DNA of 64,000 bases from Actinomycetota bacterium (GTDB taxonomy: Bacteria > Actinomycetota > Acidimicrobiia > Spongiisociales > UBA4744), in the NCBI GenBank assembly GCA_013152275.1, contig JAADGS010000092.1, positions 12,793 through 76,792 of the forward strand. The letters are read 5' to 3'. The position numbers and the translations under genes were made by a program. The notes beneath the pieces were generated by a model, which saw only the letters and a program-made list of their open reading frames with translations, was not told the origin of the DNA and ran no database searches. This document shows positions 276 to 17,685 of the stretch, piece by piece; position 1 is the first letter of the stretch; each line of letters starts with the position of its first letter.

Positions 276-1172
276 ATGACGCTGGATCCCACGACGAAGA
301 GCGGTGCCTGGTACCTGGCTTCGCGACCGCACACCCTGCCTGCGGCCCTCGCCCCCGTGGCGGTCGCCGCAGGGCTCGCCATCGGCGACGGTGCCTTCAG
401 ATGGGGACCGCTCATCGCAACGGCGATCGGCGCTCTCGCCATCCAGGTGGCCGCGAACTTCACCAACGATCTCTCGGATGCGCGCAAGGGCGCGGACAAC
501 GAGGACCGGATCGGCCCGCAACGTGCCGTCGCGTCCGGTCTGCTCACCGAACGTGCGATGGAGCTCGGCACCTGGGTCGCGTTCGCCGTCGCGACGGTCG
601 CAGGGGTGTATCTCTTTGCGATCGCAGGGTGGGTGATCGTGATCGTCGGGGTCGCATCGATCCTCGCGACCCTCGGCTATGTGGGCGGGCCGAAACCCTA
701 CGGGTACCGGGGCCTCGGCGAGGTGTTCGTGTTCGTGTTCTTCGGTCTCGTCGCGACCGTCGTGTCGCGTTTCGTGTATGACCGTGCGGCACCACTGGAC
801 GCCTGGCTGTTGGCGATCCCGATGGGGTTCCTGGTCACCGCCATCCTGGTGGCGAACAACGTCAGAGACATCGAGACGGACCGTAGCGCCGGCAAACGCA
901 CCCTTGCGGTGATCATGGGGCGAGATCGCACGAGGATCCTCTTCGACGTGCTCGTGTGGGGATCGTTCGTCCTGATCGGCGTGTTCGCACTCGCCGGATG
1001 GACGCCGGCCTGGACGGCGCTTGCACTGGTCACCGCTCCGCTCGCGATTCCCTTGACGGGCACGATCCATCGCGAGACGTCGGGGCCCGCGTTGATCGGC
1101 GTGCTGAAGGGGGTCGCCCGTCTCGACCTGGTGTTCGGCATTCTGGTGGCCATCGGCGCCGCAATCGGCTGA
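276..1172 (+). CDS. menA: 1,4-dihydroxy-2-naphthoate polyprenyltransferase (UbiA superfamily, about 8 TM helices)
   Basis: ATG at 276 is in frame with ORF 189..1172. The protein is a polytopic membrane protein with the UbiA-type motif NDLSDARKGADNEDRIGPQR and follows menB. The longer ORF start at 189 overlaps menB and is unlikely. Confidence 0.85.
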   Translation: MTLDPTTKSGAWYLASRPHTLPAALAPVAVAAGLAIGDGAFRWGPLIATAIGALAIQVAANFTNDLSDARKGADNEDRIGPQRAVASGLLTERAMELGTWVAFAVATVAGVYLFAIAGWVIVIVGVASILATLGYVGGPKPYGYRGLGEVFVFVFFGLVATVVSRFVYDRAAPLDAWLLAIPMGFLVTAILVANNVRDIETDRSAGKRTLAVIMGRDRTRILFDVLVWGSFVLIGVFALAGWTPAWTALALVTAPLAIPLTGTIHRETSGPALIGVLKGVARLDLVFGILVAIGAAIG

Positions 1173-1317
1173 CGGGCCTTCACGGCGCGCCCGGGACCGC
1201 TCGGCGACGGTGGGCCCGGGACGAACCGGCCGAAACTAAGGCCGAACGGCCCTACTCAAGATCAGCCCACTCCATCAGACTGAATTTGGAAACGTTATAT
1301 CGCTTGCGTGGAGGCAC

Positions 1318-3477
1318 GTGATGACCCGATTGAGATATCTCGTGGTCGGCGTTCTCGGATTGTTCCTCATTCTGTTGGTCGCAGGGTGCGACAACAAGGC
1401 CGCCGAGACGACCACGACGACGAGTCCACCACAGACCACAACCACAGCCACCGCTACCACAGCCCCGCCGACCGTCGAGCCGGCGGTGGAGATACCATTC
1501 CTCGCCGACTGGCAGGGATCCGGCCACGCCGATGCGAGCGCCGAGGCGTTCAATCACTGGAACGATGACGACCCGGCGATCATCCCCGCCCGCTGCGCGA
1601 AGTGTCACAGCACACCGGGCTTCCAGGACTACGTCGGCGCCGACGGCACCGCATTCGGGACGGTCGATGCCGACGCTGCGATCGGGACGACGGTGGAGTG
1701 CGTCGCCTGTCACAACGACGCGACCCTGAAACTCGACCATGTGACGATGCCTTCCGGTGTCGAACTCACCGGCCTCGACGCCGAGGCGCGATGCATGACC
1801 TGCCACCAGGGTCGGGCATGGAAGGGCACCGTGGACGAAGCCGTTCAGGGAATCGATGAGGACACGGTCTCCGAAGACCTCGGCTTCATCAACATCCACT
1901 ACTTCGCAGCGGCAGCGACCAAGTACGGGACCGTGACGAAGGGCGGCTACGAATACGACGGCAAGTCGTACGACGCGGTCTTCGCACATGTGGACGGATA
2001 CTCGACGTGTATCCAGTGCCACGATCAACACACGCTCGAACTCAAGGTCGACGAGTGCTCGACGTGCCACGCGGGAGTGTCGTCGGTCCAAGACCTCGAG
2101 AACATCCGGATGGCCGGCTCGGAAGTCGATTACGACGGCGATGGCGACATCACCGAAGGCATCGCCTCCGAGATCGAAGGTCTGCAAGAGAAGCTGTACG
2201 CAGCAATCCAGGCGTACGCCTCGTCCAAGGTCGGCACACCGATCGTCTACGCCGCAGAGTCGTACCCGTACTTCTTCGTCGACACGAACGCGAACGGCGA
2301 CGCCGACGGGGAGGAAGCCTCCTACGGCAACAAGTATGCGAGCTGGACCCCGCGACTCCTGAAGGCGACCTACAACTATCAGGTCTCCATCAAGGATCCC
2401 GGCGGGTATGCCCACGGCGGCAAGTACATCATCGAGCTGCTCGTCGACTCGACCGACGACCTGAACTCGGTGCTGTCATCGCCGATCGCCATGACCGACG
2501 TGCACCGCATCGACGCCGGCCACTTCGCAGGATCCGAAGCGGCGTTCCGCCACTGGGACAAAGACGGTGAGATCCCGGCGTCGTGCAGCAAGTGCCACTC
2601 GGCGACCGGTCTCCCGCTCTTCTTCAAAGAAGGCGTCACGATCGCGCAGCCGGTTTCCAACGGCCTCTTGTGCTCGACCTGCCACAGCGATCTGTCGACC
2701 TTTGATCGATACGAGGTTGCTTCGGTGACCTTCCCGAGTGGGGCAAAGATCGACAGCGGCAGCAACAACATGAACCTGTGCATGACGTGTCACCAAGGCA
2801 GGGAGTCGACCGTGTCGGTCGACAAGCTGATCGGCGACACGAAGGCCGATGTGGTGAGCGACTCGCTCCGGTTCCTGAACGTGCACTACTTCGCGGCCGG
2901 AGCGACGATCTTCGGAGACCAGGCGAAGGGCGCCTACGAGTACGCGGGCAAGACCTATGTCGGCTACAACGAGGATCACCCGCTGAACCAGTGCACCCAG
3001 TGTCACGATCAGCACGCCCTGGAAGTCCGGGTCGACAAGTGCTCGGCCTGTCACGGCACGGTCGCCACCGAGGACGACCTGCACGCCATCCGCATGTCCA
3101 GCATCGACTACGACGGTGACGGCGACACGACCGAAGGCATGTGGGACGAGATCCAAACCATGCGGGCCGACCTGCTCGCCGCCATCCAGGCCTACGCGGC
3201 CAAGACGGCGGGGGCCGAAGCGATCGTCTACGACCCGAACTCGTACCCGTACTACTTCATCGACACGAACGGCGATGGAGTGGCCGGCGCCGACGAGGCG
3301 AACTACGGAAACCGCTACGGCACATGGACACCCCGCTTGCTGCGGGCCGCGTACAACTATCAGTACGCGACGAAGGATCCGGGCGGGTTCGCCCACAACG
3401 GCGAGTACATCGTCCAGACCCTGTACGACAGCATCAAGGACGTCGGCGGCGATGTCTCGGGGATGACCCGACCGTAG
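1318..3477 (+). CDS. Decahaem c-type cytochrome lipoprotein with internal tandem duplication (two pentahaem modules, each followed by a ~150 aa haem-free domain)
   Basis: Signal peptide with lipobox LVAGC, then a Thr/Pro-rich linker (ETTTTTSPPQTTTTATATTAPPTVEP). There are 10 CxxCH motifs: CAKCH, CVACH, CMTCH, CIQCH, CSTCH, then CSKCH, CSTCH, CMTCH, CTQCH, CSACH. The two halves are clearly paralogous (e.g. ...RCMTCHQGRAWKGTVDEAV... versus ...LCMTCHQGRESTVSVDKL...; YPYFFVDTNANGD versus YPYYFIDTNGDGV). RBS GGAGG lies 8 nt upstream of the ATG. Confidence 0.9.
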   Translation: MMTRLRYLVVGVLGLFLILLVAGCDNKAAETTTTTSPPQTTTTATATTAPPTVEPAVEIPFLADWQGSGHADASAEAFNHWNDDDPAIIPARCAKCHSTPGFQDYVGADGTAFGTVDADAAIGTTVECVACHNDATLKLDHVTMPSGVELTGLDAEARCMTCHQGRAWKGTVDEAVQGIDEDTVSEDLGFINIHYFAAAATKYGTVTKGGYEYDGKSYDAVFAHVDGYSTCIQCHDQHTLELKVDECSTCHAGVSSVQDLENIRMAGSEVDYDGDGDITEGIASEIEGLQEKLYAAIQAYASSKVGTPIVYAAESYPYFFVDTNANGDADGEEASYGNKYASWTPRLLKATYNYQVSIKDPGGYAHGGKYIIELLVDSTDDLNSVLSSPIAMTDVHRIDAGHFAGSEAAFRHWDKDGEIPASCSKCHSATGLPLFFKEGVTIAQPVSNGLLCSTCHSDLSTFDRYEVASVTFPSGAKIDSGSNNMNLCMTCHQGRESTVSVDKLIGDTKADVVSDSLRFLNVHYFAAGATIFGDQAKGAYEYAGKTYVGYNEDHPLNQCTQCHDQHALEVRVDKCSACHGTVATEDDLHAIRMSSIDYDGDGDTTEGMWDEIQTMRADLLAAIQAYAAKTAGAEAIVYDPNSYPYYFIDTNGDGVAGADEANYGNRYGTWTPRLLRAAYNYQYATKDPGGFAHNGEYIVQTLYDSIKDVGGDVSGMTRP

Positions 3478-3495
3478 GGACCGCAACCCAAGCCG

Positions 3496-3523
3496 GAGGG
3501 GCCCGACGTATGTCGGGCCCCTC
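3496..3523. terminator. Perfect GC-rich hairpin (12-bp stem GAGGGGCCCGAC / GTCGGGCCCCTC, 4-nt loop) downstream of the decahaem gene; likely intrinsic (I-shaped) terminator
   Basis: Inverted repeat read directly from the sequence, 19 nt after the stop codon. There is no T-tract, as is common in high-GC actinobacteria. Confidence 0.6.
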
Positions 3524-3716
3524 TCGACAGGGAGCGCTCCCCTCCACGGGACGCCTCTCTCGTTCCATCCTTATGGTTCCGGTCCTGTGTCATCAGCACA
3601 CCTGATCAGCCTCTCTGATATACGACCATGAATGGGTCTTTTGGCCCTAGCCCAACGGGACGTCGACAAGAGAGTATCCCTTACAGATCCTGAGGATCGG
3701 AAGGAGGGACGGAGAT

Positions 3717-4913
3717 ATGAAACGATCCCTACTGCTGCTGGTAGTCGTTTTTGCAATGATTCTCGCCGCGTGTGCCGGACCGGCCGGCGACACAGGACCT
3801 GCAGGGCCCGCGGGGCCCCAAGGACCTGCCGGGCCGGCCGGACCTGCCGGACCCGCGGCGCCTGCCGCCGCAACCGTCGGAGCCGACTACGTGGGAACAC
3901 AGACGTGTGCCGGATGCCATCCGGACAACGCCGAGAAGTTCCTCAAGTCGGGACATCCGTACAAACTGAACAAGGTGGTCGACGGACAACCGCCGACGTA
4001 CCCGTTCACCGAGATCACCCAGGTTCCTGAGGGGTACACCTGGGACGACATCACGTACGTGATCGGTGGGTACAACTGGAAGGCCCGTTTCATCGGACTC
4101 GACGGTTTCATCATCACCGGCGACGAAAACGCCAAAACGCAGTACAACCTGCCGAACCCGACCATCGGGCTCGGAGACAATTGGGTCGCGTACCACGCGG
4201 GTCAACAGAAGGCGTATGACTGCGGTCCTTGTCATACGACGGGATACCGGCCCGAAGGCCATCAGGATGGACTCGAGGGGATTATCGGAACCTGGGCGGA
4301 GCCCGGGATCCAGTGTGAAGAGTGCCACGGCCCTGGAAGCAACCACGTGGCGGATCCGTATGGAGTCGCGATGAAGGTGGACGTGTCGTCCGAGGCATGT
4401 ACTTCATGTCACCGACGCGGGTCGACCCTGACGATCGACGCCAAAGGAGGATTCATCAAGCACCACGAGCAGGGTGAGGAGCTGTTGCAGACAAAGCACG
4501 CGTCCCTCAGCTGTGTCACGTGCCATGATCCGCATACAGGCGTCATCGCGCTACGTAAGGCCGGAGAGGACTTCGCAGCGAACTTCCCGTGTCAAACCTG
4601 CCACGAGGAACAGGCCGACTACCAGAAGTCGACCGTCATGTCGGGCTTCGTCAAATGCATCGACTGTCACATGCCACGGATCGTCAAGTCCGCGGTCGGT
4701 GATCCCGCTGCATGGACCGGCGACATCCGAACACACCTGTTCGCCATCGACCCCAACCTGACCAACCAGTTCTCCGAGGACGGCTCGGTAGCCAACTCGG
4801 CGATCACGCTGGATTGGGCCTGCAAGTCGTGTCACCGTGACGGTGGTACGGCGAGCGTCAAGACGGACGAGGAACTGAAGGCGACGGCCGAGGGATACCA
4901 CTCGAAACCGTAA
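3717..4913 (+). CDS. Octahaem c-type cytochrome lipoprotein with collagen-like (GPAGP)n N-terminal linker
   Basis: Signal peptide with lipobox ILAACAG, then GPAGDTGPAGPAGPQGPAGPAGPAGPAAPAAA. There are 8 CxxCH motifs: CAGCH, CGPCH, CEECH, CTSCH, CVTCH, CQTCH, CIDCH, CKSCH. RBS GGAAGGAGG precedes the ATG. Confidence 0.9.
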   Translation: MKRSLLLLVVVFAMILAACAGPAGDTGPAGPAGPQGPAGPAGPAGPAAPAAATVGADYVGTQTCAGCHPDNAEKFLKSGHPYKLNKVVDGQPPTYPFTEITQVPEGYTWDDITYVIGGYNWKARFIGLDGFIITGDENAKTQYNLPNPTIGLGDNWVAYHAGQQKAYDCGPCHTTGYRPEGHQDGLEGIIGTWAEPGIQCEECHGPGSNHVADPYGVAMKVDVSSEACTSCHRRGSTLTIDAKGGFIKHHEQGEELLQTKHASLSCVTCHDPHTGVIALRKAGEDFAANFPCQTCHEEQADYQKSTVMSGFVKCIDCHMPRIVKSAVGDPAAWTGDIRTHLFAIDPNLTNQFSEDGSVANSAITLDWACKSCHRDGGTASVKTDEELKATAEGYHSKP

Positions 4914-4936
4914 TACGCCTGAACTACCAGCAGCTC

Positions 4937-4965
4937 GAGAGGCCCGGGCAAGCCCCGGGCCTCTC
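4937..4965. terminator. GC-rich hairpin (GAGAGGCCCGGG-caagc-CCCGGGCCTCTC) followed by a T-rich stretch, downstream of the octahaem gene; likely intrinsic terminator
   Basis: 12-bp perfect inverted repeat read from the sequence, 24 nt after the stop codon. Confidence 0.6.
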
Positions 4966-5070
4966 GCTTCTTCCACCTCCCCCTCGCTACGCTCACGTGG
5001 GAGCGCCACGAGACCTCGGGAGCGTCTGGCGCTCGGCGCGTCCTCCGGCGGGAACGCAACCCTCGATCCG

Positions 5071-5433
5071 ATGACGGGAGACCGGACAGTGGACCACACA
5101 GACATCGCCCGAACGCTGCAGGAGAGAAAGCGGGTTCTCGAGACAGAGTTGGCACACCTTGTCGAGCCTCCCGTCGCCGGAACGAACCTGTCCTTCGGAA
5201 AGCGAATCGGAGACGGGACCACCGAAGCGGTCGAGCGCATCAACACCACGGCGGCGGCACGTTCTCTCGCGGCCTCCCTCGCCGCCACCGACCGGGCGCT
5301 CGCCAAACTCGACGAGGGCACCTACGGCATCTGTGACCTCTGCGGCGACGCGATACCCCGGGAACGACTCGACGCCCGCCCCACGACGGCGACGTGTGTC
5401 GACTGCAGCCGACAGGGAACTGCCACCGGTTGA
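5071..5433 (+). CDS. TraR/DksA-family C4-type zinc-finger protein
   Basis: 120 aa with a C-terminal CDLCG...(17 aa)...CVDC four-cysteine finger and an N-terminal coiled-coil-like region. This matches DksA/TraR family architecture. Confidence 0.7.
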   Translation: MTGDRTVDHTDIARTLQERKRVLETELAHLVEPPVAGTNLSFGKRIGDGTTEAVERINTTAAARSLAASLAATDRALAKLDEGTYGICDLCGDAIPRERLDARPTTATCVDCSRQGTATG

Positions 5434-5460
5434 CGGCTCGCTGGGCTCGCCGTACTTCGT

Positions 5461-5497
5461 ATCTCGTATTTCGTACTTCGTATCGCTCGGCGCGCTC
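5461..5497. repeat. Heptanucleotide tandem array (CGTAYYT)x5 with GTAC phased every 7 bp
   Basis: The sequence reads cgtactt cgtatct cgtattt cgtactt cgtatcg. A second, longer copy of the same array is at 8457-8499. Confidence 0.7.
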
Positions 5498-5498
5498 C

Positions 5499-6656
5499 TC
5501 AGGCCTCATCCTGCTTTCCGGTGACCGGCAGCGGTACGGCTCGCCCCTCGGCGGCGCTCGTGAGAGCGGCGGCGAATATCCGGTGGCCGGCCAGCGCCTC
5601 TTCGGGAGTGGCACAACCGAATCGGTCGCCCAACTCGCCTGCCCTCTCGGTGAGAAACGCCGCCCACATCTGGAGCAGGGCATCAGGAAACCCGAACTCG
5701 AAGATGGATCCCGTGATGGTGGGGAAGACGGAAGCGTGTCCGGGCTGGATCTCTTCCCACATCTGCCGGCCCGACGGATCGATACGAAAGCGGCGCACGA
5801 TCTGGGGCGAACGGGTCGAGAAAGACACCCCGCCCTCCATGCCCAGCACTTCGAACGTCCAGGTGTTGGACTGGCCGGGAGCGATTCGCTTGGTCTCGAG
5901 ATGAAGCGGGAACGAACCCTCCGCAGAGTCGATGGTGCAGACGAGGGAGGCGTTGTCGATGGTGTCACAGGCGACCGGCTCACCGTTCGGTCCAGGCCGG
6001 TGGGTAACGATGTCCTGAAGGGTTGCGTACACCGAGGTGGGGAGCCACCCGAGCCGGAGCGGAACATGGACGACGTGCATACCGAGGTCCCCCATGACTC
6101 CGATCTCGCCACACGTGGCGACCTTGCGCTTCCAATTGATCGGCTTGTCCCGGTTCATGTCGGATGAGTGGAGCAACGCTGCGCGCGCCTCGATGATCTG
6201 GCCGAGACGACCGGAGGCGACCTCGGCCATCGCCATCTGCGCACCCGGGAAGAACGGCAGCTCCGACGAGCAGCGCGAGAAGACGCCCGAGTCTCCTACC
6301 GCGGTGACGATGGACTGCGCCGTCGGAAGGTCGATACCGAACGGCTTCTCCCCGAAGAGGTCGATGCCCGCATCGAGGACGTCACGGTAGATGGCGCCGT
6401 GAAGGACGTGTGGGACCGCAACGTACACGACGTCGAGGCCGGCCTCGATGAGCCGGGCGTGGTCACCGGTTGTCATCTCCACCGTGTCGATCTGCTCGAA
6501 CCAGGCTCTCCGCTCGGCGTCGATGTCGCAGACGGCGACGAGGCGGGGAACCACGGGAACGTCCAGGAGTGCCATCCAGCGACCGAACGCCGCGGCGGCC
6601 TCGCGGCCCATCAAGCCGCCACCGATGATCCCGACGCGTACCTGTCGAGCCATCAT
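5499..6656 (-). CDS. Gfo/Idh/MocA-family NAD(P)-dependent oxidoreductase
   Basis: N-terminal Rossmann motif MMARQVRVGIIGGGLMG with a typical GFO_IDH_MocA N and C domain arrangement. Its start overlaps the aldolase stop (ATGA). The longer ORF to 6875 is an Arg-rich antisense extension. Confidence 0.8.
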   Translation of the reverse strand: MMARQVRVGIIGGGLMGREAAAAFGRWMALLDVPVVPRLVAVCDIDAERRAWFEQIDTVEMTTGDHARLIEAGLDVVYVAVPHVLHGAIYRDVLDAGIDLFGEKPFGIDLPTAQSIVTAVGDSGVFSRCSSELPFFPGAQMAMAEVASGRLGQIIEARAALLHSSDMNRDKPINWKRKVATCGEIGVMGDLGMHVVHVPLRLGWLPTSVYATLQDIVTHRPGPNGEPVACDTIDNASLVCTIDSAEGSFPLHLETKRIAPGQSNTWTFEVLGMEGGVSFSTRSPQIVRRFRIDPSGRQMWEEIQPGHASVFPTITGSIFEFGFPDALLQMWAAFLTERAGELGDRFGCATPEEALAGHRIFAAALTSAAEGRAVPLPVTGKQDEA

Positions 6657-7483
6657 GCGGCGTCGAGATGCTCGACGGCCTCCTCGGGGGTCCAGCCTCG
6701 ATGAAGTATCCCCATCAGCGCCTGGGTGATGACGGCGGGCTTCGGATGCTGGACGATGTTCCGGCCGTACACGATCCCGGCCGCACCTTGCTCCAGGACG
6801 GCGGCCGTCCGCCGGAAGAGCTCGGCGGAATCGACCTTGCCGCCACCACGAACGAGAACCGGGATCGGTGCACATGCCTCGATCACGTCCCCGTAGCGGT
6901 CCGCCGGGTCGCTGGGATCCGCCTTCACGACGTCCGCTCCCAGCTCGACGGCCTGACGAGCCAGAGCCTTGATCCGGTCCACGTCGCGGACCCCGGTGTA
7001 GGCGCCTCCGTCGGGGCGCATCACCAGCGGCTCGACCATGAGCGGCATCGCCGCCAGGTCGCAGGCGGCGCGCAGTGCCATGACGTTACGAACGCACGCG
7101 CGGTGCAGCTCGGGGCGACCGTCGATGTCGAGGAGGTTCACGACCACGCACGCGGCGTCGAGCCGAACGGCCTGGCCCACCGCGTCCTCGATCAGCTCGG
7201 AGAACGGGCGGTCCGGCACGTCGGAGCCGTAGACGTTGGCGATGTCGGTCCGCAACACGAGCGCCGGTCGCGGGCGAACGGGCATCGACTGGAGAAGCCT
7301 CGCCTGCCCGGGAGAGAGTTGGATGGCGTCGGGTGCGGCTTCGACAAGGCTTGCGATGACGCTCGGCATGTGCGCGATGCCTTGAAGGAAGCCGGGCTCG
7401 TTGAAGAAGCCGTGGTCGACGGCCACGTCCAGGCAACGCTCGGAGACCGGATCGAACAGTCGGTGTAGCCGCGGGCCATTCAT
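6653..7483 (-). CDS. Class I aldolase of the DhnA/FbaB/LsrF family
   Basis: 276 aa. N-terminus RLHRLFDPVSERCLDVAVDHGFFNEPGFLQG resembles DhnA-type class I fructose-bisphosphate or sulfofructose-phosphate aldolases. Its ends overlap the adjacent kinase and oxidoreductase genes. Confidence 0.7.
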   Translation of the reverse strand: MNGPRLHRLFDPVSERCLDVAVDHGFFNEPGFLQGIAHMPSVIASLVEAAPDAIQLSPGQARLLQSMPVRPRPALVLRTDIANVYGSDVPDRPFSELIEDAVGQAVRLDAACVVVNLLDIDGRPELHRACVRNVMALRAACDLAAMPLMVEPLVMRPDGGAYTGVRDVDRIKALARQAVELGADVVKADPSDPADRYGDVIEACAPIPVLVRGGGKVDSAELFRRTAAVLEQGAAGIVYGRNIVQHPKPAVITQALMGILHRGWTPEEAVEHLDAA

Positions 7484-8445: not shown

Positions 8446-8456
8446 TCGAGAGACTC

Positions 8457-10201: not shown

Positions 10202-11461
10202 TCAGCCTTGCGGCGCGCCGGCGCCGATCCATGCCTTCACCAACGCCAGGTCCTCGTCCGTGAACTTGCCGAAATGCGACCCGTCCCCCACTTTGACGAT
10301 CACATGGCTCGCATCCGCATCACCGGCCACGAACCCGGGCTCACCACTATCACCCCCGGCCAGCAACCCCGCATACGACGTAACGTCCAGACCGGAGGCC
10401 GGCGCACTGCCACCGTGACATGACCCGCACGCCGCCTCGAACACCGCCGCCACACCGGAGTTCCATGTCACGCCGGCAGAAGCCGCCGTGGTCGAGGGCG
10501 TCGCAGCCGACGTGGTCGCCGACGCGGCCGCGGTCGTCGTCGGAGCCGCGGTCGTCGGTGGAAGGGTCGTCGTGGGAGGCGTGGTCGACGGTGGAAGGGT
10601 CGTCGTCGGCAGCGGCGTGTAGATGGGTCCGGCGAGCGGCGAAGGCGCGACGGTCGTGATCGCCGTCTGCTCGAACGTCACGAACTCGTAGACCCCCATC
10701 AGCATCACGGCGGCCAGGACGGTGAAGGCCGGCCAGTACCTGAGCGCTCGGTTGCGTCGCTCCTCGGGATCGGTCTCGATCCGATCCGTTTCCGCGTCGA
10801 TCGTGGCCAGTTCGAGCGGGTGGAGCTCTTTCATCTGGGCACGCGACAGGTACCCGGTGAAGATCGAAGGGTTGAAGTGCCGCCAATGGACGTCGTAGGA
10901 GTGCCAGACGATGATGGCCAGCACGGCGAGGACCGCCTCCCAACCGTGGGCCGCCTTGGCCGCCGGCACGAAGACCCCCGGGAGGAACCGGGTGGTGGCG
11001 ATCGGATTCCAGAGCATGAAGCCGGTCACCGCCATCAGTACGGTGCCCCACACCAGCGACCAGTACTCCATCTTCTCGCCGACCGTATACCGGCCCTCGG
11101 GAGGCGGGCCCGACGCCAAACCGAGGTTGAACCTGATCCAGCCCCACGCGGCCGACAGGTCCGCCTTCCCCGGGATCAGCGAATGGGGTCTGCGGAGCAC
11201 GAAGCGCTTGTAGCCCAGCACACCGAGGTGGTACACGAGCGAGAGCAGCAGAATGGTTGCGAGAATGTGGTGGATTCTGCGGGTGTAGTCGATCCCTCCG
11301 AAGAGCCCGATGATCCAGTCCGAGAACCAGCGGTCGGCGTATTTCTGCACCAGTCCGGTGATCGCCAGACCGGTGAACGTGATGACCTGGACGGCGTGCT
11401 CGATCCGGTCCGACACCGTGAACCTCAGGATCTTCTCGTCGGGACGCGTCGTCTCAGTCAT
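10202..11461 (-). CDS. Dihaem cytochrome b (FdnI/HydC/CybH-like membrane domain) fused via a Pro/Thr-rich linker to a C-terminal monohaem cytochrome c domain
   Basis: The N-terminal ~250 aa has 4-5 TM helices with conserved His residues (RIEHAVQV, RRIHHILATI, AAHGWEAV...VWHSYDVHWRH). The linker reads PLPTTTLPPSTTPPTTTLPPTTAAPTTTAAASATTSAATPSTTAASAG. The C-terminal domain carries CGSCHG. The start overlaps the nonahaem gene end by 8 nt. Confidence 0.85.
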   Translation of the reverse strand: MTETTRPDEKILRFTVSDRIEHAVQVITFTGLAITGLVQKYADRWFSDWIIGLFGGIDYTRRIHHILATILLLSLVYHLGVLGYKRFVLRRPHSLIPGKADLSAAWGWIRFNLGLASGPPPEGRYTVGEKMEYWSLVWGTVLMAVTGFMLWNPIATTRFLPGVFVPAAKAAHGWEAVLAVLAIIVWHSYDVHWRHFNPSIFTGYLSRAQMKELHPLELATIDAETDRIETDPEERRNRALRYWPAFTVLAAVMLMGVYEFVTFEQTAITTVAPSPLAGPIYTPLPTTTLPPSTTPPTTTLPPTTAAPTTTAAASATTSAATPSTTAASAGVTWNSGVAAVFEAACGSCHGGSAPASGLDVTSYAGLLAGGDSGEPGFVAGDADASHVIVKVGDGSHFGKFTDEDLALVKAWIGAGAPQG

Positions 11462-12554
11462 GTCGTCGCCTCCTGAGGCGAGCGGCGAGCCTTCTCCGCA
11501 CGTCGAGTCCCACGGCGAGGAGCATCGCGCCGATCACGAGCGGGATGAGGATCTTGTAGAACATGTTCACCCAGTACACGAGCGGGGCCTCGGTGGTGCT
11601 CGGCGCATAGTGACTCAGCCATGCGTCGGGGAAGTTCGCCGTGGCATCCGGGTGGCACCGCCGGCACGTGCCGAGCAGATTCTTCTTGTACACGGAGCTG
11701 TCCGTGTCGCTGGGCGCCTTGATGTCATGAACACCGTGACAATCGACGCACACGGGCTTGTTCGTGTCCTGACCGGGAGCCAGCTTCTCGAAGAGAACGA
11801 CCGTCGTGCCGTGAAAGTCCGACAGGTACGAACTGAACACGTTCGTGGAGATGCCGTACTTGTCCATCAGGGCCTTGTTGGCGTGACAGTCCGCGCAGAT
11901 CTGCGGCGAGAACAGCCGGAACGGCGAATCGTCATGCGGACCCTTCACGTCATGGACGCCGTGACAGTCCGTGCAGGTCGGGACGTCCGGGTTGCCGGTC
12001 GTGAGCGCCTCCCCGTGCACGCTGTCCTCGTAGGCGTTGTAGATCTCCGAATGACATTTCCTGCACATCAGCGGAATGTTGGTTCGAGGCTCGCCGGGCG
12101 GTTGGACGTTGTGGGAACCGTGGCAGTCGGTGCAGACGGCCGCCTCCGTGACGCCGGCCTGGCGTGCGAGCTCGTGGTCGCTGTCGCGAGTCCCCGTGTA
12201 CTCGGAGTAGTGGCACGTCGCACAGGACGTATACATCTGTAGCGTGAAGCCGCGGCGGCTCTCGGCGGTGATCGGAGCGTGCGGATACGTGGAGATGTCC
12301 GTGTGACAGAGAACGCACGCCACATCGAGCTTGCCGTGAACCGAATCGGCGTACTCGTGACCGTCGACGGCAATGTCGAGCGTCTCCCCCGAGGGCAGTG
12401 GTATTCCCAGCGAGCTTCCCTCGTGACAGGAGAGACAGTAGGAGTTGTCCCACCGAGGGTCGGTCTGCGCGGCTGCCCGAGATTGCCCACCGAGCAGGAT
12501 CGCCGTACCGATGATCAGTGCACCGAGTACAACGATCCTTCTACATCTTTGCAT
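11454..12554 (-). CDS. Nonahaem c-type cytochrome, secreted, with a C-terminal transmembrane anchor
   Basis: Sec signal peptide (cleavage near AAAQT). The 9 CxxCH motifs are CLSCH, CVLCH, CATCH, CTDCH, CRKCH, CTDCH, CADCH, CVDCH, CRRCH. The C-terminal hydrophobic helix ILIPLVIGAMLLAVGL is followed by RRRLAARLRRRRHD. Confidence 0.9.
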   Translation of the reverse strand: MQRCRRIVVLGALIIGTAILLGGQSRAAAQTDPRWDNSYCLSCHEGSSLGIPLPSGETLDIAVDGHEYADSVHGKLDVACVLCHTDISTYPHAPITAESRRGFTLQMYTSCATCHYSEYTGTRDSDHELARQAGVTEAAVCTDCHGSHNVQPPGEPRTNIPLMCRKCHSEIYNAYEDSVHGEALTTGNPDVPTCTDCHGVHDVKGPHDDSPFRLFSPQICADCHANKALMDKYGISTNVFSSYLSDFHGTTVVLFEKLAPGQDTNKPVCVDCHGVHDIKAPSDTDSSVYKKNLLGTCRRCHPDATANFPDAWLSHYAPSTTEAPLVYWVNMFYKILIPLVIGAMLLAVGLDVRRRLAARLRRRRHD

Positions 12555-12660: not shown

Positions 12661-13965
12661 TCAGAGCCCGGCGAGGATCTCTCGCAAAGAGGGGCCCTTG
12701 ACGATCTCGATCCCGTAGGTGACGCGCGTTCCCGGCATGTCGAGGTCCAGCAGCGGAAGCAGATTGACCGGTGTGGCGACAACCACGACTTCGGGGTTCG
12801 CCCGCCTGATCGTTTCGGCGAGTTCGGCCCGCTGCTCTTCTCCGTAGCCCATCGCCGGGAGGAGCCGGCCGATGTGGGAGAACTTCGCAAACGTGTCGGC
12901 GATCGAACCGACGGCGAAGGGACGAGGGTCGATCAACTCGGCCGCCCCGAACTGCCTGGAGGCGATGACACCGGCACCGTACGCCATACCGCCGTGGGTC
13001 AGCGTCGGTCCATCCTCGACGACAAGCACACGCCTGCCGGCGATGAGGTCCGGGTCGGCGACGGTGATCGGCGAGTGGGCCTCGAGCACGACCGCGCTCG
13101 GGTTCGCCTCCCTCACGTCGGCGAGCACCGCGGCCACGTTCTTCTCCTCCGCAGTGCCGACCTTGTTGATCATCACCACATCGGCGCGCCGCAGGTTGGC
13201 CTCGCCCGGCCAGTATCTCAGTTCATGCCCCGGGCGGTGCGGGTCGACGACACAGATGTGCAGGTCGGGCCGGTAGAAGGGAAGATCGTTGTTCCCGCCG
13301 TCCCAGAGGATGACATCGGCTTCCTGCTCGGCGAGACGCAAGATCGCCTCGTAATCGACACCGGCGAAGATGACGCCGCCCTGCTCGATGTACGGTTCGT
13401 ACTCCTCGCGCTCTTCGATCGAGCAATCCGCGTCGATGAGGTCCTGATTGCTCGCGAACCGCTGAACCGCCTGTCTGACGAGATCTCCATAGGGCATGGG
13501 GTGGCGAATCGCCGCGACGCGTCTCCCCGCGGCGTTGAGCGTATGCCAGACGGCACGGCTGGTCGGAGATTTCCCCGCGCCCGTTCTGGCGGCCGTGACG
13601 GCGACGACGGGCAGGTCCGAAGGGATCATCGTCTGCGCACCGGGAAGCTCGTAGGAGGCGCCTGCCGCCACGGCACGCGCAGCGAGGTGCATCACGTGCT
13701 CGTGGGTGACGTCCGAATAGGCGAAGACGACCCGATCGACGTTGTAGACGGCGATCAGACGTTCCATGTCCTCCTCGGGGAGGATCGGGATCCCGTACGG
13801 ATACAACTCGCCCGCCAGCGATGCGGGATACCTCCTGCCGTCGATGTTCGGAATCTGTGTGGCGGTGAACGCCACGACGTCATAGTGAGGATCGTCCCGG
13901 TACAGAACGTTGAAGTTGTGAAAGTCCCGTCCGGCAGCCCCCAGAATCAGTATCCGTTCGCTCAT
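12661..13965 (-). CDS. Rossmann-like plus P-loop NTPase domain protein (cyclic 2,3-diphosphoglycerate synthetase-like or DUF1611-like); function uncertain
   Basis: Start MSERILILGAAGRDFHNF is preceded by GGAGG. The internal Walker-A-like motif is VTAARTGAGKSPTS. Length is 434 aa. The longer ORF to 14022 lacks an RBS. Confidence 0.55.
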   Translation of the reverse strand: MSERILILGAAGRDFHNFNVLYRDDPHYDVVAFTATQIPNIDGRRYPASLAGELYPYGIPILPEEDMERLIAVYNVDRVVFAYSDVTHEHVMHLAARAVAAGASYELPGAQTMIPSDLPVVAVTAARTGAGKSPTSRAVWHTLNAAGRRVAAIRHPMPYGDLVRQAVQRFASNQDLIDADCSIEEREEYEPYIEQGGVIFAGVDYEAILRLAEQEADVILWDGGNNDLPFYRPDLHICVVDPHRPGHELRYWPGEANLRRADVVMINKVGTAEEKNVAAVLADVREANPSAVVLEAHSPITVADPDLIAGRRVLVVEDGPTLTHGGMAYGAGVIASRQFGAAELIDPRPFAVGSIADTFAKFSHIGRLLPAMGYGEEQRAELAETIRRANPEVVVVATPVNLLPLLDLDMPGTRVTYGIEIVKGPSLREILAGL

Positions 13966-14022
13966 TGCGACCTCCGTAACAACAGTCCCACTATTGTCGC
14001 CGGATCGAGGGAACGCTCCCAA

Positions 14023-14775
14023 TCAACCGAGAAACCGCTCGATCTCGAGAGCGACCTTGCGGGGCGCCTCCCCGACGACGGCATGTCCTGCGTCCTCGAC
14101 GACCACGAGACGGCCTCCCGTGGCGGCGGCCACCCGTTCGGCGATGGCGACATACCGGGGATCCCGCTCTCCGGCGATGACCAGCACCGGCATTTCCAGC
14201 TCTTCGAGGCGATCCCCGTACCACGGCTGTGCCCCCTGGCCCATCCCCCGCAGGGCACCGGCGATGCCTCGAGCGGTGTTCTCCAGCCGAAGCGCCACGT
14301 CCGCTTCGAGCCACGCGGCACCCCTTCGGTGAAGACCATCGAAGATCGGCCGGTTCATCCAGCGTTCGAAGAAGGACTCCAGGTCCTCACTCTCGATGAC
14401 ACGCGCCAGTGCCTCGTCACGGGTCTGCCGGACGAGGCGGCGCCGCTCGTCGGCGATCCCGATTCCCGTAGAGATCAGGATGAGGTGCGAGACGGCCTGC
14501 GGATGTTCGAGCGCGACACCGAGCGCGATGCGCCCGCCTTGCGAGTAGCCGAGGAGCGCTCGACCACCCGTCACGGCGGCGACCGCCGCGATCGCCGCGG
14601 GGAAGGTTGCCGGAAACGCTGCGGCTCCTCCATGACCGGGAAGGTCCGGAGCCAGGATCTCGCGTCCGGTGATCGCTGCCAGTTCCGCGAACATGCCTCC
14701 GTGCTGCGTGAAGCCGTGCAGCGCGACGATGGCAGGCGGCCGACCGGCGAATCTTCTGACGGGGAGTCCTTCCAT
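14023..14775 (-). CDS. Alpha/beta-hydrolase; positional MenH/BpoC-like (SHCHC synthase candidate), divergent from menD
   Basis: Nucleophile elbow GYSQGG. HG oxyanion motif in IVALHGFTQHG. Catalytic His near the C-terminus (DAGHAV). Synteny with menD resembles mycobacterial bpoC-menD. Confidence 0.65.
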   Translation of the reverse strand: MEGLPVRRFAGRPPAIVALHGFTQHGGMFAELAAITGREILAPDLPGHGGAAAFPATFPAAIAAVAAVTGGRALLGYSQGGRIALGVALEHPQAVSHLILISTGIGIADERRRLVRQTRDEALARVIESEDLESFFERWMNRPIFDGLHRRGAAWLEADVALRLENTARGIAGALRGMGQGAQPWYGDRLEELEMPVLVIAGERDPRYVAIAERVAAATGGRLVVVEDAGHAVVGEAPRKVALEIERFLG

Positions 14776-14783: not shown

Positions 14784-16433
14784 TTGTTGCTGCTCGTGAG
14801 CAACTCCGCCTACAGAGCGACCGCCGTGCTCGTAGCCGCCCTCGCCCGCCTGGGTCTGCGGCATGCGTGCCTCACGCCGGGATCGAGGAACACGCCGCTG
14901 TCACTCGCATTCGCCGAGCACCCCGACGTCACCGATTGGATCCACCACGACGAGCGGTCGTCGTCCTTCTTCGCCCTCGGGCTCGCCAAGGCGACGAGGG
15001 CACCGGTTGCCGTGGTGACCACCTCCGGAACCGCCGCTGCGGAGCTCTTCCCTGCCGCCGTGGAAGCCCGCCACGGGACGGTGCCCCTCCTGCTGATCAC
15101 CGCGGATCGTCCCCCGGAACTTCGCGGTATCGGCGCTCCCCAGACGATCGACCAGGTCGGCATGTTCGGGGAGATGGTGCGCCGGTCGACCGACGCGATG
15201 CTCACCGAACTGGGTCCGGACGGAATCACCGATCTGGCCGTCGCGACGTGGAACGAGGCGATCCGGCGCCCGGGCGGCCCGGTCCACCTCAATCTCGGCT
15301 TCCGCGAACCGTTCGTTCCCACCGATCTCACCGTTGCCGAGGTCGACGTGCCCGCGGCCGACCCTGTCGGAAAGACGCCGGATGCGGGTTCCCTCCGGAC
15401 GGCTGCAGCGCTGCTGTCGGGCAAGCGAGCGCTCGTCGCCGCCGGCCCCCTCGACCATCCGGGTTTCACCGATGCCGTCACCGCACTGGCCGCCCAGGCC
15501 GGCTGGCCGATCCTGGCCGATCCGCTCAGCCAGCTGCGCGCAGGCCCCCACGATCGATCGCACGTGGTCACCTCCGGGGACGCACTCTTTCGCACGGACC
15601 GCATCCCGGGACCGATCGAAGCCGTGTTGCGCTTCGGGGCGCCTCCGACCTCCAAGGCGTTCATGACCTGGCTGGAGGGACATCCGCACGTCCCCCAAGT
15701 CGTCGTGGACGAGGTCGGCGGCCGGGACCCTTCCCGGACGGCACGGCTGATGATCACCGCCGATCCCGTCGAGTTCGCCGAAGCCCTGTCCGTCGAGCCT
15801 GTGGCCGCGGACTGGACGCACGCCTGGATGGATGCCGATGGACACGCCCGGGACGCCCTGGCGGGGATGGTGTTCCCCTCCGGGCCTGCCGTCGTGCAGA
15901 CCCTGGCGGAGCGACTCCCGGCCCGCTCGAACCTCTACGTCGCCTCCTCGATGCCGGTGAGAGATGTCGACCTGTTCTTCCCCTCGATCGACCGGCCGAT
16001 CCGACTGCTGGCGAACCGCGGCGTCAACGGCATCGATGGTCTCGTCTCTTCGGGTCTGGGCGCCTCCGCCACCGGCACGACGACGTTTGTCCTCACCGGC
16101 GACTTGTCCGCTCTGCACGACCTGGGGGCGCTCGCAACCGCTGCACGGCTTCGCCTGCCGGTCACGATCGTCGTGGTGAACAACGACGGCGGTGGCATCT
16201 TCTCGTTCCTCCCGCAGGCGAAGCTGCCGCGCCATTTCGAGCGGGTGTTCTCCACCCCGCACGGTCTGTCCTTCGTGCCCGTGGCCGAGGCGTTGGGTCT
16301 GCGCGCCGTCCACGTCGACCGCCGCGATCGGTTCGTTTCGGCGCTCGGTGAACCGGGGCCGTTGCTCATCGAGGTGACGACCGATCGCGATGCGAACGTC
16401 CGGATCCACGAGGAGGCGCTCGCGAGACTCTGA
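14784..16433 (+). CDS. menD: 2-succinyl-5-enolpyruvyl-6-hydroxy-3-cyclohexene-1-carboxylate synthase (ThDP-dependent)
   Basis: N-terminus ...NSAYRATAVLVAALARLGLRHACLTPGSRNTPL aligns with MenD N-termini. The ThDP-binding region GDLSALHDLG...VVVNNDGGGIFSF is present. The longest ORF starts at TTG 14784; GTG at ~14796 is an alternative. Confidence 0.85.
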   Translation: MLLLVSNSAYRATAVLVAALARLGLRHACLTPGSRNTPLSLAFAEHPDVTDWIHHDERSSSFFALGLAKATRAPVAVVTTSGTAAAELFPAAVEARHGTVPLLLITADRPPELRGIGAPQTIDQVGMFGEMVRRSTDAMLTELGPDGITDLAVATWNEAIRRPGGPVHLNLGFREPFVPTDLTVAEVDVPAADPVGKTPDAGSLRTAAALLSGKRALVAAGPLDHPGFTDAVTALAAQAGWPILADPLSQLRAGPHDRSHVVTSGDALFRTDRIPGPIEAVLRFGAPPTSKAFMTWLEGHPHVPQVVVDEVGGRDPSRTARLMITADPVEFAEALSVEPVAADWTHAWMDADGHARDALAGMVFPSGPAVVQTLAERLPARSNLYVASSMPVRDVDLFFPSIDRPIRLLANRGVNGIDGLVSSGLGASATGTTTFVLTGDLSALHDLGALATAARLRLPVTIVVVNNDGGGIFSFLPQAKLPRHFERVFSTPHGLSFVPVAEALGLRAVHVDRRDRFVSALGEPGPLLIEVTTDRDANVRIHEEALARL

Positions 16434-16436
16434 TCT

Positions 16437-16493
16437 CCCCGTTCTCGTGACGGTTGAGCAGGATTATTCCCGTCAACCGTCACGAGAACGGGG
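16437..16493. repeat. REP-like palindromic element copy 1 (21-bp arms CCCCGTTCTCGTGACGGTTGA / TCAACCGTCACGAGAACGGGG, 15-nt loop)
   Basis: Read directly from the sequence. It lies between convergent menD (stop 16431-16433) and menF. The right arm encodes the last residues and the TGA of menF. Confidence 0.8.
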
Positions 16494-17685
16494 GGATTTG
16501 GAGGATGTCGAGCAGCCCCCGCAGTTTCGCCTCGGTCTCCGCCACTTCGGCCACCACGTTCGAGTCCCGCACGATCCCGGCACCCGCGTACACGCGTGCC
16601 TCGTGGTTCCGAAGAAGGGCGCAGCGCAGGGCCACGGCCGCCTCCCCATCGCCGGAGGCGTCGGTCCATCCGACACCGCCCGCATACCAACCCCGATCGA
16701 TCGCTTCGACCTCTCGAATGTAGGCGAGGGCGGCGGCGGTGGGTGTGCCGCACACCGCGGGGGTCGGGTGCAGCGCCAGAGCGAGTTGGAGCACGCCCAT
16801 CGGCCTGGCGAGCAGCCCCCGGATCTCCGTCCCCAGGTGCAGGATGTTGGCGAGGCGCATGACCGTCGGACCGCCGGGAACCGACAGCTCCGACGTCAAC
16901 GGACCCAGCACGCGGACGATGTCATCGACGACGAACTGATGCTCCCTACGATCCTTCGCGCTCTCCAGCAGCGTCCGCGCCGACTCCTCGTCCTCGATCG
17001 AGCCCCTGCCACGCACCGCGCTGCCCGCCAGCGGAAACGATCGGATCGATGCCCCCCACCGTTCCACGAGCAACTCCGGGCTGGCACCCACGAACGCACT
17101 CCCATTCTCCACCCACCCGTACGCGAACGCGTCCGGAAACCGTTCCCGGAGCAAGGCCACGACGTCGAACGGCCGGATGTCGTCGAAGGCCAGCATCACC
17201 GAACGCGCCAACACGACCTTGGAGAGAAGCCCGGCTTCGATCGTCTCGCGTGCCCGTTCGACCATGTCCGCCCACACGTCGGATTCGGGATCCCTGGCCG
17301 TCACCCGGCCGACCGGCACGAGCGTCTCTCCCGGGTGATCGAGCCGACGGAGCATCGCCGGCATCTCCTCCTGGCCCGGAGCGATGCGAAGACGGCCTCC
17401 TCCCTCTCCCTTGACCAGGGTCACCGCCGGCAGGACGACGCTTCCGGTCTTCTTGGAACCGTCGAACGGAAACGCGAAGAACAGCCTGCCCTCGGAGGGA
17501 GGCCGAGCCAGGAGATCATCGCTGCGCCAGGCCACACCGACCCCGACTGCTTCCTCCCGACCTCCGAAGAAGAAGACGGGAGCGCCGGCGCGCGACGCTG
17601 CGCGGGCGAGATCGATCGGTTGCACCGCGCATGGCACCGACAGGCCCGCCGCCAGGTCGGTGCAGACATCGTTGGGAAAAAGCAC
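16480..17685 (-). CDS. menF: Isochorismate synthase (menaquinone-specific)
   Basis: Chorismate-binding enzyme motifs (PELLVER..., SFPLAGSAVRG, GWYAGGVGW). The longest ORF extends to 17793 and would overlap the upstream hydrolase by ~100 nt. A GTG at ~17685 (VLFPNDV) gives a 10-bp spacer and is preferred. Confidence 0.8.
   Translation of the reverse strand: MLFPNDVCTDLAAGLSVPCAVQPIDLARAASRAGAPVFFFGGREEAVGVGVAWRSDDLLARPPSEGRLFFAFPFDGSKKTGSVVLPAVTLVKGEGGGRLRIAPGQEEMPAMLRRLDHPGETLVPVGRVTARDPESDVWADMVERARETIEAGLLSKVVLARSVMLAFDDIRPFDVVALLRERFPDAFAYGWVENGSAFVGASPELLVERWGASIRSFPLAGSAVRGRGSIEDEESARTLLESAKDRREHQFVVDDIVRVLGPLTSELSVPGGPTVMRLANILHLGTEIRGLLARPMGVLQLALALHPTPAVCGTPTAAALAYIREVEAIDRGWYAGGVGWTDASGDGEAAVALRCALLRNHEARVYAGAGIVRDSNVVAEVAETEAKLRGLLDILQIPPFS

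Follow-up and report, generated by a model that had tools for sequence, protein, structure and literature searches.

Cytochrome and sugar-catabolism genes between menA and menD of an Acidimicrobiia genome: probable stepwise accretion at a permissive junction

Bacteria of the class Acidimicrobiia, most of them uncultured, abound in sediments, soils and mine waters. In one of them (assembly GCA_013152275.1, contig JAADGS010000092.1), the menaquinone-biosynthesis (men) locus is interrupted between menA and menH-menD by five cytochrome genes, a DksA/TraR-family gene, a kinase-aldolase-oxidoreductase operon and the gene of a P-loop protein. The locus lies at the start of a stretch of 64,000 nucleotides (nt; contig positions 12,793 to 76,792), referred to here as the window, and coordinates are those of the window unless a relative's locus is named. 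An earlier reading, made from the sequence alone, had proposed that these genes were inserted into an otherwise contiguous men locus and might form an island bounded by repeats. The insertion was borne out by the synteny of relatives, by conserved flanks and by intermediate stages. The insert is a real but fairly ordinary gene accretion, and not a repeat-bounded mobile island. On balance, we favour a permissive menA-menH/menD spacer that took up genes in multiple steps, with vertical inheritance since; the cytochromes would form a menaquinol-oxidising electron-export chain, and their adjacency to the men genes is probably an accident.

Synteny of the men locus in relatives

A MenA scan with one genome per species gave 80 menA loci, onto which the window proteins were mapped; the closest loci came from Acidimicrobiia metagenome-assembled genomes (MAGs). 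The relatives' loci that were compared with the window are denoted by L-numbers, where L099 and L102 are two contigs of assembly GCA_011682695.1, and L105 and L106 are two JGI contigs. In the window, the gap between the end of menA and menH measured 12,850 nt, in agreement with the ~13 kb first reported between menB-menA and the hydrolase/menD/menF/hydrolase group, and Pfam and NCBIfam placed the genes listed above at about the positions first assigned to them. There is no room for further genes in this gap, because its intergenic spacers are only 57–239 nt long.

In 33 loci, menD follows menA in the same orientation; there, the menA-menD spacer spans up to 8,234 nt (median 1,256 nt), compared with 13,611 nt in the window, and 26 of these spacers are ≤2 kb. 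In L012 (MenA 64% identical), the order is menB-menA-menH-menD-menF-hydrolase-CBS/BON-response regulator-histidine kinase with nothing interposed, and menA abuts menD in L008, L016, L020, and L025. The men genes are thus neighbours in related genomes. Both flanks of the interrupted region are conserved in relatives, the left one as amylase-RF1-menE-menB-menA and the right one as menF-hydrolase-CBS/BON-Usp-response regulator-histidine kinase. Contiguous or near-contiguous men genes were found across Acidimicrobiia, other Actinomycetota, Chloroflexota, and Dormibacterota, and since this order is so widespread, the interrupted state of the window is derived. Synteny in relatives therefore supports an insertion into the men locus. 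Multihaem open reading frames (ORFs; ≥3 CXXCH motifs) within 10 kb of menA were present in only 3 of the 80 loci, which are the window's three closest relatives.

The relatives also form a nested series. L108, whose GTPase is 71% identical to the P-loop protein of the window, carries menA, the P-loop GTPase, signalling genes and menD, with no cytochromes. A second clade (L002, L019, L109, and L110; MenA ~75%) carries menA, a collagen-linked 6-haem lipoprotein, a 7-haem ImcH-like protein, the GTPase, menH, and menD. The full set is carried by the window clade, which comprises the window, L001, L099 together with L102, L105, and L106. L001 reads menB-menA-MHC1-MHC2 (MHC, multihaem cytochrome), L099 reads menE-menB-menA-MHC2 on one contig, and L102 reads menF-menD-menH-GTPase-MHC3-cytochrome b-ImcH-pfkB-aldolase-oxidoreductase, an order shared by L105 and L106. 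MHC1 and the DksA gene are each present in some full-set loci and absent from others. MHC1 was found in L001 (82%) and L081 (61%) and is absent from L099, where window 1178–3479 corresponds to 99 nt. The DksA gene had no tblastn match in any locus examined and is confined to the window genome; L001 passes from the MHC2 hairpin directly to a heptamer array without it. L107 has only window 5530–8417 (the sugar cassette, 83.5% nt identity) in common with the window, and in a different context.

In other lineages, the same spacer holds unrelated cargo. That of L023 comprises ABC-2 exporters, TetR, a Na+/H+ exchanger, a metallo-beta-lactamase, and a PfkB kinase; L029 carries an ABC ATPase and ZnuA, L011 has a GNAT acetyltransferase, and GGDEF-EAL proteins occur elsewhere. 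The menA-menD junction is a recurrent gene-accretion site.

We infer the following order of events. An ancestral menB-menA-menH-menD-menF locus would first have received the COG2403 GTPase beside the men genes, as parsimony suggests. The next additions would have been the ImcH-like quinol oxidase, with its seven haems, and a multihaem cytochrome of the lipoprotein type, followed by the split CbcL, the OcwA-like 8-haem and the duplicated 10-haem lipoproteins, and the three-gene sugar cassette. The DksA/TraR gene would have been gained at this last stage in the window genome only. The sugar cassette, the GTPase, and the DksA gene would be unrelated passengers. The series from men genes only, through addition of the GTPase and then ImcH, to the full set would thus record a respiratory module assembled piecemeal at one permissive junction, without signatures of mobile elements.

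Protein identities of the insert and of the men genes were compared at two distances. Relative to L102 and L105, they were 82–87% for the men genes, 78–88% for the cytochromes (85–88% for the ImcH-like protein), 86–93% for the sugar genes, and 89% for the GTPase. Relative to the second clade (L002/L019/L109), they were 70–76% for ImcH, 78–81% for the GTPase, and 50–76% for the men genes. Because the insert and the men genes diverge in parallel and the closest relatives are interleaved, the arrangement appears to be old and vertically inherited within the sub-lineage.

Cytochromes and the predicted electron path

The ImcH-like protein has 521 residues from its first GTG (509–540 in relatives). 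Hydropathy peaks at residues 37–55, 71–89, and 117–135 correspond to three N-terminal transmembrane helices, and the third helix is immediately followed by a CX3CH motif (residue 151), with CXXCH motifs at 176, 225, 334, 449, 469, and 511. A NapC/NirT core was recognised at residues 122–209 (PF03264, E = 1.9e-10; NrfH TIGR03153, 55.9 bits). The published plan of ImcH comprises 495–519 residues, three helices, an atypical CX3CH, six CX2CH motifs, and partial similarity to NapC/NirT, and ImcH homologues have already been recorded in Actinobacteria (PMC6295460). The protein encoded at 8570–10135 has all five of these architectural features of Geobacter sulfurreducens ImcH. An exact look-up of this protein returned no record.

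Directly upstream, two genes that overlap by 8 nt encode MHC3 and a cytochrome b protein. MHC3 has a signal peptide, nine CXXCH motifs, and a C-terminal transmembrane helix. The cytochrome b protein is of the FdnI/HydC type (PF01292, E = 2e-10; TIGR01583, 52.9 bits) and has five transmembrane helices, a Thr/Pro linker, and a monohaem PSCyt1 domain; its histidines at 22, 64/65, 78, 172, and 187 are located within or next to helices. In L089, the gene immediately upstream of an ImcH homologue encodes a fused protein of 1,021 residues with 21 haem motifs. Residues 401–720 of this protein, a stretch that takes in its first transmembrane helix, align with MHC3, and residues 762–972 with the cytochrome b protein (34%, E = 7e-34). 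The two window proteins align in the same collinear way to the fused protein of L086. Because of this collinear alignment, MHC3 and the cytochrome b protein are assigned as the two halves of a predicted split CbcL-type protein. Together, they provide nine CXXCH motifs, a b domain of the FdnI/HydC type and 1 + 5 = 6 helices, as in the CbcL/MtrH/MtoC family, in which the b-type membrane domain is dihaem, CbcL has nine CX2CH motifs (3–23 across the family) and three conserved histidines serve as b-haem ligands (PMC6295460). The window version differs from CbcL in being split after the first transmembrane helix and in having gained the Thr/Pro linker and the PSCyt1 domain.

The c and b domains are also encoded by two ORFs with an 8-nt overlap in L083, L085, L102, and L105, and the order MHC3-cytochrome b-ImcH recurs in the high-GC metagenome contigs L083 and L085. 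In L081, an MHC1 homologue is added, and the neighbours are ccmABC and not men genes. The putative cbcL-imcH gene pair is conserved across very different genomes. Fused CbcL-type proteins with 19–21 haem motifs were also seen immediately upstream of ImcH homologues on lower-GC contigs (L086 7029–9878; L089 1669–4734).

MHC1 and MHC2 are lipoproteins. MHC1 has the lipobox LVAG|C, a Thr/Pro-rich linker, and two tandem modules of ~325 residues with five CXXCH motifs each. L001 and L081 retain this tandem duplication (~72% nt identity between the halves, with a DYDGDGD motif in each), and a search of the PDB found no related structure (best E = 0.029). MHC2 has the lipobox ILAA|C, a collagen-like GPAGP linker, and eight CXXCH motifs in 398 residues. 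Its residues 48–255 match residues 7–218 of the OcwA chain in PDB 6i5b (phmmer, E = 1e-11), and its family has >1,800 homologues, mostly in Actinomycetota and Chloroflexota. In the Gram-positive Thermincola potens, OcwA acts as a terminal reductase at the cell surface (PMC6703420). CXXCK or other special haem motifs were not found.

From these architectures, we infer an electron path. The ImcH-like protein, the split-CbcL-like protein, or both would oxidise menaquinol in the membrane, and electrons would pass via outward-facing haems to lipid-anchored MHC2 and MHC1, whose long flexible linkers would let them reach through the wall. The acceptor would be extracellular, wall-associated or insoluble, such as Fe(III)/Mn(IV) minerals or humic substances. 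The multihaem chain thus probably carries electrons from menaquinol to the surface of a single-membrane cell. The quinol-oxidase architectures fit the menaquinol-dependent respiratory module suggested at the outset, and the functional meaning given there to its co-localisation with the men genes is weakened by its rarity at menA. The components belong to known families, of which the split CbcL and the duplicated pentahaem lipoprotein are variants. No papers linking Acidimicrobiia to ImcH/CbcL-type modules were found in full-text searches. The set of ImcH-like, CbcL-like, and lipid-anchored multihaem proteins offers concrete, testable genes with which a single-membrane lineage of actinobacteria would respire minerals or humic substances.

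Several points weigh against this account of stepwise gain and electron export. The order of gains was derived from identity levels and not from a species tree, all relatives are metagenome-assembled fragments, and the arrangement of L099 and L102 spans a contig break. Window 1–6000, which holds MHC1 and MHC2, is the most deviant part (tetranucleotide r = 0.951–0.953 vs 0.970 ± 0.007, z ~ −2.5), and the third-position G+C content (GC3) of MHC2 is low (0.74, z = −2.1), so that MHC1 and MHC2 may have arrived later than the other genes of the insert. The signal in 1–6000 can also stem from the atypical amino-acid make-up of the proteins (GC1 0.59, GC2 0.46). Architecture and the fused intermediate were the grounds on which kinship with ImcH and CbcL of Geobacter was assigned. 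No cytochrome c maturation genes lie within the window. Thr/Ala/Pro-rich linkers after the lipobox are generic in this genome and are thus weak evidence for spanning of the wall. Finally, proteins of the OcwA type also reduce nitrite and hydroxylamine (PMC6703420), which makes a soluble acceptor possible.

This last point leads to an alternative in which the acceptor that the cytochromes serve is soluble, namely nitrite, hydroxylamine or a sulfur oxyanion, or in which electrons flow the other way, being taken up from Fe(II). MHC2 is related to the OcwA/NrfA/c554/MccA group of enzymes, and CbcL/MtoC homologues also occur in Fe(II) oxidisers (PMC6295460). However, surveyed ImcH homologues occur only in Fe(III) reducers (PMC6295460), and a conduit is the better fit for a pair of large multihaem proteins that are lipid-anchored, carry long linkers and show no recognisable catalytic-site signature. 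We consider the alternative unlikely.

Electron export could also be tied to menaquinone synthesis by selection, with menH, the GTPase, cbcL, imcH, and the sugar genes in one transcription unit that co-regulates synthesis and the oxidase chain. From menH (14775) through to the oxidoreductase (5499), eight genes share one direction, with overlaps or gaps of ≤124 nt, and at least three genomes keep their order. There is also a precedent in the FLEET locus of the monoderms Listeria and Lactiplantibacillus, in which the quinone-synthesis genes for DmkA (a MenA-type prenyltransferase) and DmkB accompany an electron-export pathway (PMC9888254). Against such selection, conserved hairpins after imcH and after MHC2 separate the units, the cytochrome module occurs without men genes elsewhere, beside ccm or unrelated genes, and the linkage is confined to one sub-lineage. 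We therefore regard a selected linkage as quite unlikely. A bolder form, in which men synthesis (from the divergent menH/menD promoter region) and the cytochrome export chain would form a co-regulated supra-operon and the imcH-pfkB heptamer array would tune read-on into the sugar genes, strikes us as improbable; if true, it would make the locus an actinobacterial, haem-based equivalent of FLEET, which is flavin-based. The linkage may well be accidental, because other lineages hold unrelated cargo at the junction, and the adjacency of men and cytochrome genes is probably a historical accident rather than design. Function should not be read into a co-localisation that holds in one sub-lineage only.

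Ancestry, composition and repeats of the insert

Stepwise gain was weighed against an ancestral arrangement, in which the interleaved order would date back to early Acidimicrobiia and the cytochromes, once part of the men locus, would have been lost many times. The sequence-only reading had taken an interleaved order in relatives, free of a compositional signal, as the mark of such an arrangement. The closest relatives do share this order, without a codon-usage signal. It is probably not ancestral to the wider group, in which the contiguous state is widespread and multihaem genes near menA are rare (see above). Moreover, homologous cytochrome modules elsewhere do not adjoin men genes, and many independent, precise losses would be required. 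An ancestral order is thus very improbable, and stepwise gain remains the preferred explanation.

The compositional deviation that the first reading had suggested looking for was not found across the insert. In leave-one-out comparisons with the window's 54 genes, the synonymous-codon likelihood of the inserted genes gave z = −1.0 to +2.3, and the codon usage of the cytochrome genes was, if anything, better adapted than that of the window genes. GC3 of the inserted genes was 0.74–0.85, compared with 0.80 ± 0.03 in the window, and that of the oxidoreductase was normal (0.815) with the corrected start. The mild tetranucleotide shift in 1–6000, together with the low GC3 of MHC2, was the only deviation. 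Pfam domain scans detected no integrase or transposase in the insert, ARAGORN no tRNA in the window, and Rfam no families across the whole window. The insert borders (1173–1317 and 13966–14022) are free of repeats, tRNA, and mobility genes. Megablast of the insert against plasmids gave no match, and the DksA protein had only one weak partial match among phages. Sites predicted by sigma-70 promoter and terminator scans were no more frequent than in shuffled sequence.

The heptamer arrays that had been noted near 5461 and 8457 are genuine: a degenerate two-heptad pattern matched eight times in 64 kb, with all matches at 5451–5485 and 8457–8491, compared with 0.04 expected. These arrays, A2 and A1, are direct repeats with 92% identity over 36 nt, and they enclose only the three sugar genes and not the 12.9-kb block. 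The array in the imcH-pfkB spacer (GTACTTC-like units) lies after a conserved hairpin, just before the ribosome-binding site of pfkB, and has 6 units in the window, 10 in L102–L104, and 3 in L105/L106. In relatives, heptamers are located at ~8940–9015 (L102), ~8995–9020 (L105), and 7700–7735 (L001); in L001, a 4-unit array stands directly 3' of MHC2. L102 and L105 have a different repeat, resembling repetitive extragenic palindromes (REPs), after the oxidoreductase gene in place of the second array. The possibility that the arrays are ends of a mobile sugar cassette or att-like sites was rejected, as the L107 cassette lacks both arrays, L102 and L105 lack the downstream copy, and the copy number varies (3, 6, 10). 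Judged from these comparisons, the heptamer arrays are variable-number tandem repeats of the group's intergenic DNA and not ends of a cassette or island. One idea is that the array before pfkB would tune pfkB expression through slipped-strand events.

Heptanucleotide arrays with other units (GGTATCC, GATACCT, CCATCAG, GCCAGCA, GCAAGTA, GACAGTC, CTGAAGA, and GGGTTCC) recur in intergenic DNA of MAG loci from Acidimicrobiia and other Actinomycetota. Heptamer sites were recorded in L008 (17765–17958 and 20322–20352), L019 (12737–12760), L001 (7736–7770), L024 (10075–10109 and 13398–13437), L002 (5835–5864), and L006 (13087–13123). In L008, arrays in inverted orientation flank a two-gene unit.

The REP element that had been reported at 16437 proved to be a dispersed palindrome at 16433–16497, with 25-nt arms that are 96% complementary (−60 kcal/mol, z = −8.7). 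Its 57-nt form consists of CCCCGTTCTCGTGACGGTTGA, a 15-nt loop, and the reverse complement. Further copies were found at ~21895–21975 and 57389–57445, and one in L099 (1488–1554), with 0 expected by chance. The palindrome is probably a bidirectional terminator, because all three copies in the window sit between convergent genes. It resembles REP elements in being imperfect and in recurring in intergenic copies (three per 64 kb), but its sequence is unrelated to enterobacterial REPs, and a RAYT transposase was not seen.

The assemblies of L099, L102, L103, L105, and L106 end in REP-like or tandem 'TTTCCTCCCCCAG...GGGGGAGGTG' repeats. These five independent breaks fall just past the oxidoreductase gene or MHC2, and the spacer between the convergent MHC2 and oxidoreductase genes is a repeat-rich site of assembly breakage.

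The repeats do not bound an island, as had been proposed: the arrays flank the sugar cassette only, the palindrome lies between menD and menF, and the borders are bare. A recent horizontal acquisition of the whole 12.9-kb block as one mobile unit, bounded by the arrays and the palindrome, could draw on its patchy distribution among Acidimicrobiia (present in some relatives, absent at the same site in others, as for classical islands), on the mild oligonucleotide deviation in 1–6000, and on the existence of the 36-nt direct repeats, but it is largely refuted and hardly credible, given that the direct repeats bracket 5487–8463 only, the palindrome lies 2.4 kb past the right edge, integrase, transposase, tRNA, and plasmid or phage similarity were not found, codon usage is normal, intermediate stages exist among relatives, and insert and flanks are equally diverged among four relatives.

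Gene map, neighbouring features and comparison with known systems

ORFs were selected by third-position G+C (G+C content of the window, 65%) and named with Pfam and NCBIfam. The features of the menA-menH interval and its flanks are listed in Table 1.

Table 1. Features of the interrupted men locus in window coordinates
Feature	Coordinates	Strand	Basis or remark
menB, 1,4-dihydroxy-2-naphthoyl-CoA synthase, C-terminal 90 residues	2–274	+	truncated by window edge; NF006186 156 bits, profile 214–302; ECH_1
menA, DHNA polyprenyltransferase	276–1172	+	NF004751 309.7 bits (cut-off 264); left anchor of the variable junction
MHC1, 10-haem lipoprotein cytochrome	1318–3477	+	Pfam, CXXCH motif count
MHC2, 8-haem lipoprotein cytochrome, OcwA/cytochrome c554-related	3717–4913	+	Pfam, motif count, PDB match
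G+C-rich terminator-like hairpin 3' of MHC2	4940–4966	+	kept in L001 and L099 (sequence comparison)
DksA/TraR-family C4 zinc-finger protein, 120 residues	5071–5433	+	PF01258 E = 4.7e-10; TIGR02890 64.6 bits
Heptamer array A2, 5 units, CGTAYYT-like	5451–5486	.	between convergent DksA and oxidoreductase genes
GFO/IDH/MocA-family oxidoreductase, last sugar-cassette gene	5499–6656	-	Pfam, NCBIfam; start MMARQVRVGIIGGG overlaps aldolase stop
DhnA-type class I aldolase (DeoC/LacD family)	6653–7483	-	PF01791 E = 4e-32
PfkB-family sugar kinase	7480–8445; true start probably GTG at 8415	-	PF00294 E = 1.7e-47; start from relatives
Heptamer array A1, 6 units, imcH-pfkB spacer, just 5' of pfkB ribosome-binding site	8443–8499	.	
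Hairpin after imcH-like stop codon	8520–8548	-	kept in L102–L106 (read from sequence)
ImcH-like putative 7-haem quinol oxidase, NapC/NirT-related	8570–10135	-	architecture, Pfam, NCBIfam
Cytochrome b plus monohaem c, putative C-terminal half of split CbcL	10202–11461	-	Pfam, NCBIfam, alignment to L089
MHC3, 9-haem cytochrome, putative N-terminal half of split CbcL	11454–12554	-	motif count, alignment to L089
P-loop protein, COG2403-type 'predicted GTPase'	12661–13965	-	names on homologues
menH-like alpha/beta hydrolase (SHCHC synthase candidate)	14023–14775	-	right anchor of the junction; divergent from menD as in relatives
menD, SEPHCHC synthase	14784–16433	+	TIGR00173 401 bits (cut-off 244)
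REP-like dispersed palindrome	16433–16497	.	between convergent menD and menF
menF, isochorismate synthase	16480–17793	-	TIGR00543 281 bits (cut-off 224.75)
Second alpha/beta hydrolase	17696–18487	-	conserved menF neighbour in relatives

The menA ORF opens at 189, and its start at 276 was taken from the annotation of L099 and a 90% nt alignment. The menH-like hydrolase scored 177.3 bits with TIGR03695 (cut-off 208.55), its best match by far, and its position divergent from menD is conserved.

The P-loop protein has >8,000 homologues and is 63% identical to proteins of Pyrococcus horikoshii and Aciduliprofundum. Its family is labelled 'predicted GTPase' and, in some recent records, cyclic 2,3-diphosphoglycerate (cDPG) synthase. 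No significant Pfam or NCBIfam match was found, its profile gave a marginal match to PDB 9sxb (cDPG synthetase, E = 0.023), and a single-sequence AlphaFold2 model was unusable (pLDDT 38.7). Such cross-domain conservation is unusually high for a protein without a matching Pfam or NCBIfam model.

None of the three sugar-cassette proteins reached an NCBIfam cut-off. The aldolase has >8,000 homologues, many of them named class I fructose-bisphosphate (FBP) aldolase; it is 59–65% identical to ordinary DhnA-type FBP aldolases, and 59% to a stand-alone Verrucomicrobiia copy beside secA. An identical aldolase is present in sequencing run SRR25425416. An archaeal-type ADH synthase feeding chorismate and menaquinone was considered for this protein and rejected, as its score was 126 bits against a cut-off of 241 and its identity to ordinary DhnA-type enzymes also speaks against it. 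On a plain reading, the kinase, aldolase, and dehydrogenase are a predicted route for a sugar.

Beyond the second hydrolase, a Usp gene (19116–19565) lies between the CBS/BON gene (18484–19119) and a LuxR-type response regulator ORF (19544–20956, 470 residues), the 3' end of which it overlaps. This regulator ORF is probably over-extended at its 5' end, as the receiver starts at residue 249 and the L109 homologue has 222 residues. Two solute-binding lipoproteins (26736–28040 and 33248–34591) have long Thr/Ala-rich linkers after the lipobox, encoded by tandem repeats of 18–21 nt (27835–27940 and 34331–34394). Further downstream of the men locus, a xanthine-dehydrogenase-type molybdoenzyme (46603–49071) and a pyruvate:ferredoxin oxidoreductase (52726–56103) are encoded; the latter suggests anaerobic or facultative metabolism.

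The men locus itself resembles other actinobacterial men clusters, for example that of Mycobacterium tuberculosis (Rv0534c–Rv0558), where menA, menB, menE, and menD are clustered with a bpoC/menH-like hydrolase that is divergent from menD, and unrelated genes are interspersed. No multihaem cytochrome genes are known to lie within these other clusters.

The window and the FLEET locus both combine quinone-biosynthesis and electron-export genes in one monoderm locus. However, FLEET is flavin-based (Ndh2, PplA, EetA/B, FmnA/B), lacks cytochromes, and has a linkage that is conserved across many genera, whereas the linkage in the window is limited to one sub-lineage and unrelated cargo occupies the junction elsewhere.

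The pathways of T. potens and T. ferriacetica resemble the predicted chain in that multihaem c-type cytochromes lead from the membrane to the surface of a monoderm cell (PMC6703420, PMC7911101). MHC2 matches only the N-terminal, c554-like part of OcwA. It has 8 and not 9 haem motifs and 398 vs 526 residues, is lipid-anchored via a collagen-like linker, and does not have the C-terminal three-helix bundle that accompanies the nine haems of OcwA. The duplicated pentahaem module of MHC1 has no counterpart among solved structures.

ImcH and CbcL are the inner-membrane quinol oxidases of extracellular electron transfer in Geobacter sulfurreducens. In the window, the genes of the ImcH and CbcL types are adjacent and accompanied by further c-type cytochrome genes, as is reported for many homologues (PMC6295460). 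The host differs from Geobacter in being a high-GC, single-membrane member of the Acidimicrobiia and not a diderm, and the window set has no porin-cytochrome partners.

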